Source: a virus
Reading direction: 5' to 3' (one strand)
Virus record (IMG/VR): IMGVR_UViG_3300022690_000584
Length of the DNA stretch: 47,488 nt
The position numbers and the translations under genes were made by a program. The notes beneath the pieces were generated by a model. The model was not told the DNA's origin. It did no database searches and worked only from the letters and a program-made list of their open reading frames with translations. This document shows, piece by piece, positions 7,940-9,919 of this stretch; the stretch's first letter is position 1, and each line of letters opens with the position of its first letter.

Positions 7940-8337
7940 AAATATTAAAAGACAACATGAAGCGCACATTCAAAGATATTAGTGATAAAAAAGCGCCTCA
8001 GTTTGTTAGTGCTGTTTTGTCTATTGGTGAAAATCATTCTAAGGAATTGGCACCTGTTGCTTATTCTTTTTTGATAAATAATATAATAAAAGATTTAAAT
8101 GTTTCTGGCAGTAAAGTTACCGGAACTTTAACTTATGCTCAAAATTATGCCGCTGCATTGGAATTCAGAACTGATTGGAAACCTAAGCCACCACCAAAAT
8201 ATGGCAATAAGAAAAAAGGTATTGCACCGGCACCAGCTTGGAATCCAAACGCTACGCCTCATTATCTTAAGCGGGGTTTCGAAGATCAAGAGAGCCAAGC
8301 GCTGATTAAAAGAGTTGAGGGGATATTCAAGATATGA
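7915..8337 (+). CDS. Putative HK97 gp10-like neck/tail component
   Basis: The motif ...TLTYAQNYAAALEF resembles the YA..vEfG signature of the HK97 gp10 family. The start is ambiguous (7903 or 7915). Confidence 0.45.
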   Translation: MPVNKAKLKILKDNMKRTFKDISDKKAPQFVSAVLSIGENHSKELAPVAYSFLINNIIKDLNVSGSKVTGTLTYAQNYAAALEFRTDWKPKPPPKYGNKKKGIAPAPAWNPNATPHYLKRGFEDQESQALIKRVEGIFKI

Positions 8338-8780
8338 GCACAATAGCAGATTTAGAAGTCAAACAACTTGAAGATCACTTAACTTCTGGAGGCTTCTTTG
8401 CACCTTTTACTGATATTTTAGGAAATAATCAGCCAGCGCCAACATTCCAGTCGTTCGAATTAGATTTAACCAATGGAACGGTTGACCGTAATGAGCGAGT
8501 TATCATGATCCGAAACTCTGGAAATATAACAGCTTCAACCCGAACATTTTTCAAAGAAAGATTTATGTTAGTTTTAGTTGTTGGCCGTGTTGGTGAAAGT
8601 GATCGCGTTATTGTCAATGGACTCGCCGAAGATATAGAAGATTATTTAGTTAAAAACTTCTCTGATGGTGCATGTATTGCCAATATTGTTAGCTCAGGTG
8701 TAAGTCCTACATTCATCACCGAAGATGGTCGCCGGGCGTTTGAAATAAATATTACTGTAATGTTTAATATTATTCGTTGA
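8334..8780 (+). CDS. Putative tail completion/terminator protein
   Basis: It is the last gene before the major tail gene, with an ATGA overlap upstream. Called from position only. Confidence 0.35.
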   Translation: MSTIADLEVKQLEDHLTSGGFFAPFTDILGNNQPAPTFQSFELDLTNGTVDRNERVIMIRNSGNITASTRTFFKERFMLVLVVGRVGESDRVIVNGLAEDIEDYLVKNFSDGACIANIVSSGVSPTFITEDGRRAFEINITVMFNIIR

Positions 8781-8957
8781 CATTGTGTTTAATGTGTTTT
8801 ATATTTAAGTTGATTTTAAGTGTAACTATATAGTCTGTATACAAGAGTGAGTTAGTGTTTAATTCCTGCAACGCGTTAAACAGCATAATACCTACCTTGC
8901 AAGCTAGTTCACTTTTTATACAGATTATAACGCAAGTATTTTACATTTAGATTTTAA

Positions 8958-8985
8958 TTGACGCTAGGAAAGACTAGAATATAAT
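8958..8985 (+). promoter_or_regulatory. Near-consensus sigma70 promoter
   Basis: TTGACG (8958-8963), 16-nt spacer, TATAAT (8980-8985), with an AT-rich tract upstream. Confidence 0.6.
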
Positions 8986-9108
8986 TAACCTCTCGTTCAC
9001 ACATTGAAACATCGTGTGGGATTTACTGGTAAATCGACTGAGCAGGACACTCGGGGTATTTGAAAAGCCATTGGTACTATTTTACCACCAGTAAATTATA
9101 ACTATTAC

Positions 9109-9187
9109 ATCGACGTACGCAAATTGGTAATCCGCCGACTAAGCGTTATGCCGGTATTTGCAGGTTCGAGTCCTGCCGTCGATACCA
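9109..9187 (+). tRNA. tRNA-like element / possibly degenerate tRNA (anticodon not assignable)
   Basis: Perfect 7-bp acceptor stem (ATCGACG with CGTCGAT). D-arm CGCA-AATTGGTAA-TCCG with one mismatch. Canonical T-arm GCAGG-TTCGAGT-CCTGC. Discriminator A and an encoded CCA. No canonical 5-bp/7-nt anticodon arm can be drawn from the 25 nt in between. Confidence 0.45.
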
Positions 9188-9342
9188 AATTCATGAAGTA
9201 TCAAGCAGTGTTAGCGATGCCCTAGTTAACATTAAAAATCTGCCGTAAAAGCCGGTTTGAGGAGCCATTATTTTAAATAAGAATATTAGAGTTTCAATTG
9301 CTCTACAAAATGGTAGGTTTACCGATATTTTTATTATAATCA

Positions 9343-9368
9343 AAACCCTCTTAATTGAGGGTTTTTTA
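9343..9368 (+). terminator. Rho-independent terminator
   Basis: AAACCCTC-ttaatt-GAGGGTTT followed by a T-run. Confidence 0.8.
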
Positions 9369-9430
9369 TTACCCACAATTCCATGCTACAATACTATCGA
9401 ATTAATTATAAATTACTCGGAGCATAAAAC

Positions 9431-9919
9431 ATGGCGATTTGTAGCACTTCCACAAATAACCCAGGCAAAAACGTTGCTGTCGAATTCGCTATTGGTTGTG
9501 GCGATGATGATTTTTTAACTAACACTTACAAACCACTAGGAACGATAAACGCTAAGGATTTAACTTTTGCTGCTGTTGAAACTGACAATACCAATGATCT
9601 ATCTGGCTCTACATCTTCATCAATTATAGTTAGAACTAGCTTCGATTTAACGGTTGCTGGTTTTACAACTAATGTCGATTCTGCAACTTCTGCGCAAAAC
9701 GAATTAGTAACTTATTACTTTGCTGAGCTCCAAGCAGGAAGACAACCAACCGTCTGGATAAAAATATCTGGCCCAAACTACCCTAGAACCTGGCATATTT
9801 TTATGAATTACAAAGGCGGCGGGGAAGGGTTTGGCACTGATGATCTGCAAAGTATCTCATTTGACTTTAGTGTTACCGATACGGGCACGGCAATTAATAA
9901 CGCAGTAAACTTAAGTTAA
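9431..9919 (+). CDS. Major tail (tube) protein
   Basis: 162 aa with GGAG upstream. It lies immediately before the chaperone and tape measure genes. Called from position and composition. Confidence 0.6.
   Translation: MAICSTSTNNPGKNVAVEFAIGCGDDDFLTNTYKPLGTINAKDLTFAAVETDNTNDLSGSTSSSIIVRTSFDLTVAGFTTNVDSATSAQNELVTYYFAELQAGRQPTVWIKISGPNYPRTWHIFMNYKGGGEGFGTDDLQSISFDFSVTDTGTAINNAVNLS

Follow-up and report, generated by a model that had tools for sequence, protein, structure and literature searches.

A tRNA-like gene without a decoding anticodon arm between the tail genes of a marine siphophage

Phage tRNA genes are usually discussed as helpers in codon usage or as replacements for tRNAs that were cut by defence systems. 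The locus described here raises the question what a phage may do with a gene which has the ends and the elbow of a tRNA and no anticodon arm for decoding. The DNA is the IMG/VR record IMGVR_UViG_3300022690_000584, and all positions refer to the window, i.e., the whole stretch of 47,488 nt which was analysed. According to PHROG and Pfam scans the phage is a lytic, marine siphophage with a T1-like layout. Genes for structure and packaging (tail terminator, major tail, tape measure, portal, terminase) and for DNA metabolism (Dam methylase, primase, helicases, recombination genes, HU) were found, and the tape-measure gene has distant kin in Vibrio, Pseudoalteromonas and Aeromonas phages. The same scans of the ORFs showed no integrase, reverse transcriptase, TROVE/Rsr protein, synthetase, transferase or tRNA enzyme.

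We read the element as a non-decoding descendant of a phage tRNA-Asp(GUC) in a small tRNA/small-RNA cassette with presumably independent transcription, where it would most likely serve as a processing or stability handle; a probability of roughly one half appears adequate. It appears that a phage lineage has abandoned decoding and yet preserves the tRNA shape. If this is true, bacterial viruses possess a counterpart to the tRNA mimicry of mascRNA, tmRNA and Y-RNAs, and a simple system would be at hand for the acceptor/T-arm half alone as a processing signal, a stabiliser or a decoy.

The element and its arms

The element is located on the plus strand and is composed of the following parts.

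9109-9187, plus strand: tRNA-like element, 79 nt, 32.3 bits with RF00005; read as a non-decoding derivative of a phage tRNA-Asp
9109-9115, plus strand: 5' strand of the acceptor stem, ATCGACG; 7 of 7 pairs with 9177-9183 by direct reading and pair table
9116-9117, plus strand: T8 and A9, by direct reading
9118-9134, plus strand: D arm CGCA-AATTGGTAA-TCCG; stem 9118-9121/9131-9134 with three of four pairs
9122-9130, plus strand: D loop AATTGGTAA, with A14, G18 and G19 in place
9135-9159, plus strand: 25-nt segment CCGACTAAGCGTTATGCCGGTATTT between the D and T arms, by direct reading
9135-9154, plus strand: aberrant anticodon arm, stem CCGAC/GCCGG with an A.C mismatch at 30-40
9140-9149, plus strand: loop of this arm, TAAGCGTTAT, 10 nt, without U33 or a usable anticodon
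9155-9159, plus strand: variable loop TATTT, the same in contigs L173 and L187
9160-9176, plus strand: T arm GCAGG-TTCGAGT-CCTGC; 5 of 5 pairs and a canonical T loop
9177-9187, plus strand: 3' strand of the acceptor stem, CGTCGAT (9177-9183), followed by A73 (9184) and an encoded CCA (9185-9187)

An earlier note on this DNA had described a perfect acceptor stem followed by A-CCA and a textbook T arm, and both descriptions hold. The element has the 7-bp acceptor stem and the single-stranded NCCA 3' end of a tRNA, and its T arm displays a 5-bp stem, a 7-nt loop, G53-C61, U54, U55, C56, R57 and A58. Acceptor pair 3-70 is C-G, i.e., there is no G3.U70. The D arm had been called intact as well; U8, A14, G18 and G19 are all present, and its stem has one C.C mismatch.

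The anticodon arm of a tRNA, with its 5-bp stem, 7-nt loop, U33 and purine 37, is not formed. As the earlier note had stated, in no register does 9135-9159 combine a 5-bp stem and a 7-nt loop. Among tRNA-like registers of the 25-nt segment the best is CCGAC/GCCGG with a 10-nt loop and the variable loop TATTT, and the loop UAAGCGUUAU offers no U33-NNN-R37 register. The fold preferred in the note, CCG/CGG enclosing TAA-GCG-TTA, survives as one possible reading, but it is neither the best tRNA-like register nor the minimum-energy fold of RNAfold, in which the acceptor and T arms persist and AUUGGUA is paired with UGCCGGU.

ARAGORN reported neither a tRNA nor a tmRNA over the whole 47.5-kb window, and Rfam at gathering thresholds returned nothing for the window, tmRNA included. 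In a permissive local Rfam scan RF00005 (tRNA; gathering score 29) matched 9109-9184 with 32.3 bits and an E value of 9e-5. This alignment treats 14 anticodon-arm nucleotides as an insert and flags non-canonical pairs in the D stem. Thus, a canonical cloverleaf, which would have shown that the hand fold had overlooked one, was returned neither by ARAGORN nor by the local Rfam scan. The single-sequence folding z-score is -1.5, which is not significant alone; at this value the folding energy by itself proves nothing. That the element is more than a chance similarity rests on the covariance-model score together with the homologues described below. It is filed as a tRNA-derived, non-decoding tRNA-like gene. 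Because standard tRNA callers miss such genes, phage tRNA-derived RNAs are under-counted.

Relatives, descent and selection

Upstream of the element is the tail-terminator gene (8334-8780), downstream the major tail gene (9431-9919, phrog_853); the two are separated by the 650-nt gap in which the element lies. Relatives were found via the major tail protein, and their comparison demonstrates that the gap is a variable cargo slot and recombination hotspot. In L003, L004, L145, L165, L166 and L176 the slot contains unrelated ORFs, in L171, L175 and L178 almost nothing, and in L174 a 290-nt gap without a tRNA-like element. With the major tail protein as query, three loci were obtained from metagenomes, none with the element.

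Two relatives are decisive for the origin of the element. L177, with a major tail protein 69% identical to that of the window, carries in this slot a tRNA-Pro(UGG) of 58.2 bits and a tRNA-Asp(GUC) of 54.7 bits (L177:549-625), both called by ARAGORN. L173, with a major tail protein 75% identical, carries the orthologue of the window element (L173:315-402; 35.6 bits with a 22-nt insert), which ARAGORN rejects. It reads ACCGACG-TA-CGAAAATGGTAATCCG-CCGCC-(20-nt loop)-TGCGG-TATTT-ACAGG-TTCAAGT-CCTGT-CGTTGGT-G-CCA; its D arm is CGAA-AATGGTAA-TCCG, and its 20-nt loop TATAGCAATAGCATTGTGTT contains a tandem duplication of ATAGCA. Outside the loop the cores of the window and L173 elements are 83% identical. 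The L173 element and the L177 tRNA-Asp(GUC) are 69% identical and have in common the initial four anticodon-stem pairs (TGCGG on the 3' side), TTCAAGT as T loop, the 3' acceptor CGTTG.T and G73-CCA. As the window element is the orthologue of that in L173, and the latter shares stem, T loop and 3' end with the tRNA-Asp of L177, the window element stems from this lineage. Its status as a non-decoding tRNA-Asp derivative is well supported by these comparisons.

A direct comparison of the window element with the L177 tRNA-Asp(GUC), its homologue by way of L173, shows the same slot, the same order acceptor-D-anticodon-variable-T-acceptor-NCCA, A1-U72, most of the CCG./.CGG anticodon stem, the same T-loop type and an encoded CCA. 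The differences concern decoding and identity. The tRNA has the loop CUGUCAA, whereas the element has the 10-nt UAAGCGUUAU without U33 or GUC, an A.C mismatch in the anticodon stem, and is rejected by ARAGORN. The identity elements for AspRS are the anticodon GUC and the discriminator G73. L177 has both; the window element has no GUC and A at position 73 and, therefore, is not a tRNA-Asp isoacceptor. The aberrant loops themselves look homologous, i.e., TA-AGCGTTAT of the window corresponds to TATAGCATTGTGTT of L173 after removal of one ATAGCA copy, and the 9-mer AAGCGTTAT of the window loop is identical in L002:2052-2060.

Further members of the slot are remodelled in other ways. In L168 the element measures 57 nt; it combines a tRNA-Pro acceptor (CGGAATA) with a CACCG-TTTAG-CGGTG hairpin of 5-nt loop, a T arm and A-CCA, and the D arm is missing. 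In L169 and L170 long inserts occupy the centre, and the T arm and CCA are present. The slot copy in L002 contains a loop region with AAGCGTTAT, its alignment to the window being significant (0 of 500 shuffles); it has no CCA and runs on into a long helix. The window, L173, L168, L169 and L170 all retain acceptor stem, T arm and CCA (NCCA in L173, L168 and L170, CCA after the acceptor strand in L169), and they differ in, or have lost, the D and anticodon arms. The anticodon loop comprises 10, 20 or 5 nt or is replaced. The discriminator and the first pair differ also (A73 or G73; A1-U72, C1-G72 or G1). Scans of viral contigs and genomes with the motif AAGCGTTAT..GGTTCGA yielded L002 as the only true relative, all other matches being ordinary tRNAs or chance matches in coding regions. 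BLAST of gap, element and module, the latter being described below, against 50,697 isolate phage genomes showed generic T-arm similarity only.

Could the element decode nevertheless, either with an expanded anticodon loop of the frameshift or suppressor type or after post-transcriptional removal of the extra loop nucleotides? L169 and L170 possess UUCUAGA (anticodon CUA), compatible with a 7-nt loop, on covarying short stems, and L168 has UUUAG; for those members odd decoding is not dismissible. The loop of the window, however, lacks a U33-NNN-R37 register, and the ORFs of the phage are intact under the standard code. To our knowledge, loops of 10 and 20 nt are outside anything which decodes, and we know of no small-intron splicing system for bacterial tRNAs. 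For the window element decoding is thus very improbable.

A different origin would be an attP copy or a scar left by recombination with a host tRNA. The 3' portion of a host tRNA is found in many temperate phages, and the 26-nt stretch 9152-9177 occurs unchanged in a tRNA piece of the unrelated viral contig L187. Against this, no integrase or recombinase is encoded in the scanned ORFs, and the same slot contains two free-standing tRNA genes in L177. Both acceptor strands are present, so the element is more than a 3' fragment. The earlier note had asked for identity with a host tRNA to be checked: the 22-nt GGTTCGAGTCCTGCCGTCGATA (9163-9184), which extends from the T loop to A73, has 0 exact matches in 185,579 representative bacterial and archaeal genomes. 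On this result the host-tRNA scar was rejected, and as a whole such an origin deserves next to no credence.

The earlier note had left open a decayed tRNA and a non-decoding mimic. That the element is a non-decoding tRNA derivative is supported by L173 and L177; plain decay is disfavoured, though not disproved, by conservation and compensatory changes in the stems. Identity between the window and L173 amounts to 72% in the adjacent major tail gene, to about 55% at its third positions of conserved codons and to 40-42% in the 60-nt flanks. In the 24 positions of acceptor and T stems five nucleotides differ, and all 12 pairs are kept. Pair 2-71 is T-A in the window, C-G in L173 and G-C in the L177 tRNA-Asp; pair 49-65 is G-C, A-T and G.T, respectively; pair 4-69 changes from G-C in the window to G.U in L173. 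When five substitutions are placed at random all pairs are preserved in 0.17% of trials (p ~0.002). With L173 as the one close orthologue, next to the more distant L002, the selection test is based on 12 differences. As the loops look homologous and the 9-mer is identical in L002, decoding was probably lost before the compensatory changes occurred in the stems. Conservation and compensation favour a retained tRNA-shaped RNA over plain decay, without proving it. Selection appears to act on the top half of the tRNA, and the element probably acts through its tRNA shape and not by decoding. A recent lateral transfer of the element of about 80 nt, or of the cassette, could inflate the apparent conservation.

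The competing view is that of a plain pseudogene, i.e., a tRNA-Asp whose loop was broken by small insertions and which drifts without function towards deletion. No tRNA caller accepts the element, and the D and anticodon stems each contain a mismatch. Among relatives the slot is canonical in L177, damaged in L168, L169 and L170, and empty in L171, L174 and L175, and sub-threshold tRNA-like sequences exist in unrelated phage tRNA clusters, too (L181, L186). On the other side, the core is conserved well above silent sites and flanks, 5 of 5 stem substitutions preserve pairing (p ~0.002), and acceptor (7/7), T stem (5/5), elbow nucleotides and CCA are intact in the window and in L173 despite differing loops. 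Phage genomes usually purge useless DNA fast, which also counts against a pseudogene. We consider plain decay less likely than retention but grant it a fair share, as the sample is small and lateral transfer could mimic conservation. Should the element be a pseudogene, it still documents fast remodelling of tRNA genes in a phage cargo hotspot.

The phage 'pseudo-tRNAs' of L181 and L186 resemble the element with respect to a sub-optimal covariance-model score and a defective anticodon arm. They differ in that the element has a perfect top half, compensatory evolution, and a conservation above neutral between two non-decoding lineages. The individual cases are L181:2656-2723 (19.5 bits) and a 'tRNA-???' in L186. 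The slot as such is a recombination hotspot of remodelled tRNA pieces, a pattern which ongoing decay would generate as well.

The cassette, the downstream module and a proposed role

In addition to the element the gap contains two sigma-70-like promoters, a non-coding module, a terminator-like hairpin and a TGnTAYAAT promoter of the tail gene.

8777-8805, plus strand: predicted sigma-70-like promoter TTGACA-17-TATATT, where the tail-terminator gene ends; marks the conserved entry of the cargo slot
8958-8985, plus strand: second sigma-70-like promoter TTGACG-16-TATAAT, predicted solely from its match to the consensus (11 of 12)
9188-9255, plus strand: conserved non-coding module directly 3' of the CCA; no Rfam family match
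9342-9367, plus strand: intrinsic-terminator-like hairpin AAAACCCTC-ttaatt-GAGGGTTTT with a T run at the end of the cassette; conserved in L001, L168 and L172
9384-9392, plus strand: extended -10 promoter-like TGCTACAAT ahead of the major tail gene

The first promoter has the same TTGACAttgtgttt in L168, L170, L174 and L177 and a variant, TTGACAtatgattt, in L169. The second is positioned about 125 nt upstream of the element. Most relatives retain the TGnTAYAAT motif; the form in L169 and L174 is GTGATACAAT. The hairpin at 9342-9367 gave chance matches to Rfam models of the sRNA-terminator type, and a fold of the whole 381-nt cassette was uninformative.

Additional copies or partners of the element in the window were considered and rejected. 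Local alignments of 9027-9075 as a partial duplicate of the element and of 8826-8880 as a remnant of an L169-type element were no better than those of shuffled sequences (166 of 500 and 56 of 500, respectively). For the loop as an antisense seed, AAGCGTTAT and its complement showed no enrichment in the window, with 13 matches against 16 expected.

The module consists of AATTCATG-AAGTATCAAG, a stem P1, a hairpin P2 (TGTTA/TAACA), an A-rich stretch and a hairpin P3, CCG-TAAAAGC-CGG; its signature is AAGUAUCAAG...CGUAAAAGCCG, and covariation is seen in P1 and P3. It is present also in L170, L173 and in the unrelated viral contigs L179-L184 and L186. In unrelated contigs it usually belongs to tRNA clusters, where it is placed directly 3' of a tRNA or between two of them; L186, L184 and L181 show it behind the 3' end of a tRNA. 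It adjoins the CCA in the window and in L170, and in L173 it is located 19 nt upstream of the element. A small ORF was dismissed as an explanation: ORFs starting with ATG-AAG-TAT-CAA stop at different places, and the conserved CGTAAAAGCCG is in different frames.

How might the element function? Its RNA would be transcribed from the sigma-70-type promoters, cut at the 5' end by RNase P and trimmed at the 3' end to the CCA, as is a tRNA, and it would act through its tRNA shape, off the ribosome. As a tRNA-shaped 'punctuation' it would set the ends of the adjacent, co-transcribed small-RNA module. Possible precedents, by analogy, are flanking tRNAs which release a spacer RNA from a polycistronic tRNA precursor, and mascRNA, which defines the 3' end of MALAT1. 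The acceptor stem, T arm, elbow and NCCA of tRNAs constitute the surface for RNase P, 3'-end trimming enzymes, the CCA-adding enzyme and TruB/TrmA, and the minimal RNase P and CCA-end substrate matches the parts which are kept across the relatives. Judged from the sequence, the features of an RNase P substrate are present, i.e., a predicted coaxial acceptor/T-arm helix of about 12 bp, the T-loop elbow, a 3' RCCA and a single-stranded 5' leader. As a second option the element might be a minihelix mimic which occupies a tRNA-binding protein. The sequence evidence favours a processing/stability handle or a minihelix mimic over neutral decay.

Some observations touch on the handle. The cassette has its own predicted promoters and a terminator-like hairpin, which is in line with it. 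Two facts weaken the handle reading. The module has no neighbouring tRNA in L179, L180 and L182; hence a tRNA handle is not obligatory. The L002 copy without CCA and with its long helix is at odds with processing by RNase P.

Alternatively, the minihelix with CCA may be a mimic or decoy of tRNA ends, which soaks up a host factor acting on tRNA 3' ends, e.g., CCA-targeting toxins, or is charged as a non-ribosomal donor. Acceptor, T arm and NCCA are kept while the anticodon is free, and phages reportedly carry tRNAs which counter tRNA-targeting defences. Nevertheless, Pfam and PHROG scans of the ORFs disclosed no partner gene in cassette or genome, there is no G3.U70, and acceptor sequences and discriminator vary among relatives, so that no common aminoacylation identity is visible. 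We regard this alternative as quite improbable. The earlier note had suggested a decoy for tRNA-targeting nucleases. Anticodon nucleases recognise the anticodon loop, and the anticodon arm is also read by most synthetases. A decoy for anticodon nucleases is unlikely because the loop is the very part which varies or is lost across the relatives.

Returning to the processing/stability handle, a wider proposal can be formulated, tentatively and at odds clearly short of even. Marine T1-like siphophages may keep, under purifying selection, anticodon-less tRNA-shaped RNAs derived from their own tRNA-Asp and tRNA-Pro genes, with the acceptor/T-arm minihelix and CCA as the only conserved surface and with a loop motif, (U)AAGCGUUAU, common to L002 and the P2 loop of the widespread, tRNA-cluster-linked module as seen in L184. 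They would form a new class of mimics, either RNase P-dependent punctuation for spacer-derived small RNAs or decoys for tRNA-3'-end factors. In the literature we found no described phage family of non-decoding tRNA-like genes.

Comparison with established tRNA mimics

Membership in the tmRNA-like or YrlA-like RNAs is a further alternative. YrlA RNAs, which have no anticodon, mimic the acceptor, D and T arms; they are permuted, with the T arm ahead of the D arm, have a closed acceptor hairpin and a Ro-binding stem which replaces the anticodon arm, and are encoded beside rsr (PMC4201824). YrlA of M. smegmatis is cut by RNase P and receives CCA (PMC4201824). The element is likewise a non-decoding mimic of these three arms. 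Unlike YrlA, it has the normal tRNA order and free ends; permutation, Ro60/Rsr-binding stem and an rsr neighbour are absent, and the scanned ORFs contain no TROVE gene.

With the tRNA-like domain of tmRNA the element has in common the acceptor and T arm, the D-loop nucleotides, the ACCA end and the lack of an anticodon. It differs as a contiguous RNA of 79 nt without an mRNA-like domain, pseudoknots or the G3.U70 alanine identity, and with a real D stem; ARAGORN called no tmRNA. A weak match to the tRNA-like domain, 22 bits, is located at L002:2166-2218 in the same slot. Taken together, a tmRNA-like or YrlA-like nature of the element is hardly credible.

A mascRNA-type element is a cleavage signal for RNase P and RNase Z which defines the end of a neighbouring RNA. 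The mascRNA of MALAT1 (RF01684) resembles the element by its tRNA-like cloverleaf in which the acceptor and T arms are conserved and the anticodon arm is not. It is, however, eukaryotic and has no sequence homology to the element, which RF01684 does not match in the window, and processing is a prediction in the case of the phage RNA. Since the defining features are absent, membership of the element in the YrlA, tmRNA or mascRNA families was rejected. A weak match to RF01684, 16.7 bits, is found at L002:2164-2213.

Cargo between the tail-terminator and major-tail genes

The gap that houses the tRNA-like element (window 8781-9430) was compared with the same gap in the related contigs L001-L004, L145 and L165-L178. 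It is a cargo hotspot whose framing signals are conserved. A TTGACAttgtgttt promoter marks the end of the tail-terminator gene, a TGnTAYAAT promoter precedes the major tail gene, and a terminator hairpin is the third signal. The cargo itself varies: some gaps have none at all, others contain unrelated ORFs in either orientation, and others again carry tRNAs and tRNA-likes. Elements in five of these relatives are:

L002:2010-2110, tRNA-like copy with AAGCGTTAT
L002:2166-2218, second, 53-nt mini tRNA-like, after the first
L145:~1887-1975, basal helix GGTAATGGTTTTG/CAAAACCATTAACC, homologous to that of L002
L168:2123-2179, 57-nt derivative of tRNA-Pro(UGG)
L169:2324-2405, remodelled tRNA-like
L170:2144-2248, remodelled tRNA-like

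The first L002 tRNA-like lacks a CCA and stands atop a 13-bp bulged helix (GGTGAGTGTTTTG/CAAAACACTCAACC), with which it folds at z = -4.0. The mini tRNA-like matches weakly to the tRNA-like domain of tmRNA and to mascRNA. The insert on the L145 helix differs from that of L002.

The L168 derivative has the acceptor CGGAATA and the ACCAAATT trailer of the canonical tRNA-Pro(UGG) in the relative L177. Its D arm is deleted, its T stem is preserved by a compensatory T-A to C-G change, and its anticodon hairpin is CACCG-UUUAG-CGGUG with a 5-nt loop. The L169 and L170 tRNA-likes have in common a T arm (TCAGG/CCTGA), the CCA, one extra nucleotide at the junction of T stem and acceptor, and a conserved palindromic TTTTCTAGAA; acceptor pairing is imperfect (6/7-7/8). 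TTTTCTAGAA is compatible with a 7-nt loop, UUCUAGA, which would present the amber-suppressor-like anticodon CUA on covarying stems of 3-4 bp. The L169 tRNA-like has no D arm.

A structured module 3' of the element

Directly 3' of the CCA of the window element lies a conserved module. Copies are located as follows:

window 9188-9255
L170:2249-2315
L173:229-296, contig with the orthologue of the window element
L186:4394-4462, unrelated viral contig
L184:643-714, unrelated viral contig
L181:2727-2797, unrelated viral contig

Further copies are in L179, L180 and L182, also unrelated. In such unrelated contigs the usual site is directly after the CCA end of a tRNA or between tRNAs. The module begins with (A/G)WTTCATG-AAGTATCAAG and stem P1; the P2 hairpin that comes next is variable, and an A-rich stretch separates it from the P3 hairpin, CCG-UAAAAGC-CGG. 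P1 and P3 show covariation. The conserved CGTAAAAGCCG is in different reading frames among the copies, which rules out a coding reading. The module is conserved, structured and non-coding. It matched nothing in Rfam or in isolate phages.

In the L184 module the P2 loop (~672-690), CUAGCGUUAUGG, is near-identical to the aberrant anticodon loop of the window element, CUAAGCGUUAUG, compared over window 9139-9150. By a rough estimate the shared 8-mer has a chance probability of about 1%. Module and tRNA-like could have a loop motif in common, or one could have acquired its loop from the other. UAGCG also occurs within the P2 loops of the window and L170 modules.

Odd tRNA-likes and permuted halves in unrelated phages

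Elements rejected or flagged by standard callers are present in other phage tRNA clusters, too:

L181:2656-2723, tRNA-like of 19.5 bits with shortened acceptor, directly preceding the module; identical in L183
L186:3683-3758, ARAGORN 'tRNA-???' with a 2-nt anticodon

On the minus strand of L187 (IMGVR_UViG_3300000970_000052), at ~640-860, tRNA halves stand in circularly permuted order. The 3' halves comprise anticodon GTC, CTCGG, TATTT, the T arm and the acceptor 3' strand; a few nucleotides after each comes a 5' half with a complementary acceptor strand. Acceptor complementarity between paired halves is 6/7 and 7/7; in the first unit, complementarity to the 3' half extends to the anticodon-stem strand in the 5' half. 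ARAGORN reported no tRNA at this locus. Window 9152-9177 has 26 exact nucleotides in common with it. The L187 break separates position 31 of the anticodon stem from the loop, and the extra nucleotides of the window and L173 elements are placed where the L187 halves break.
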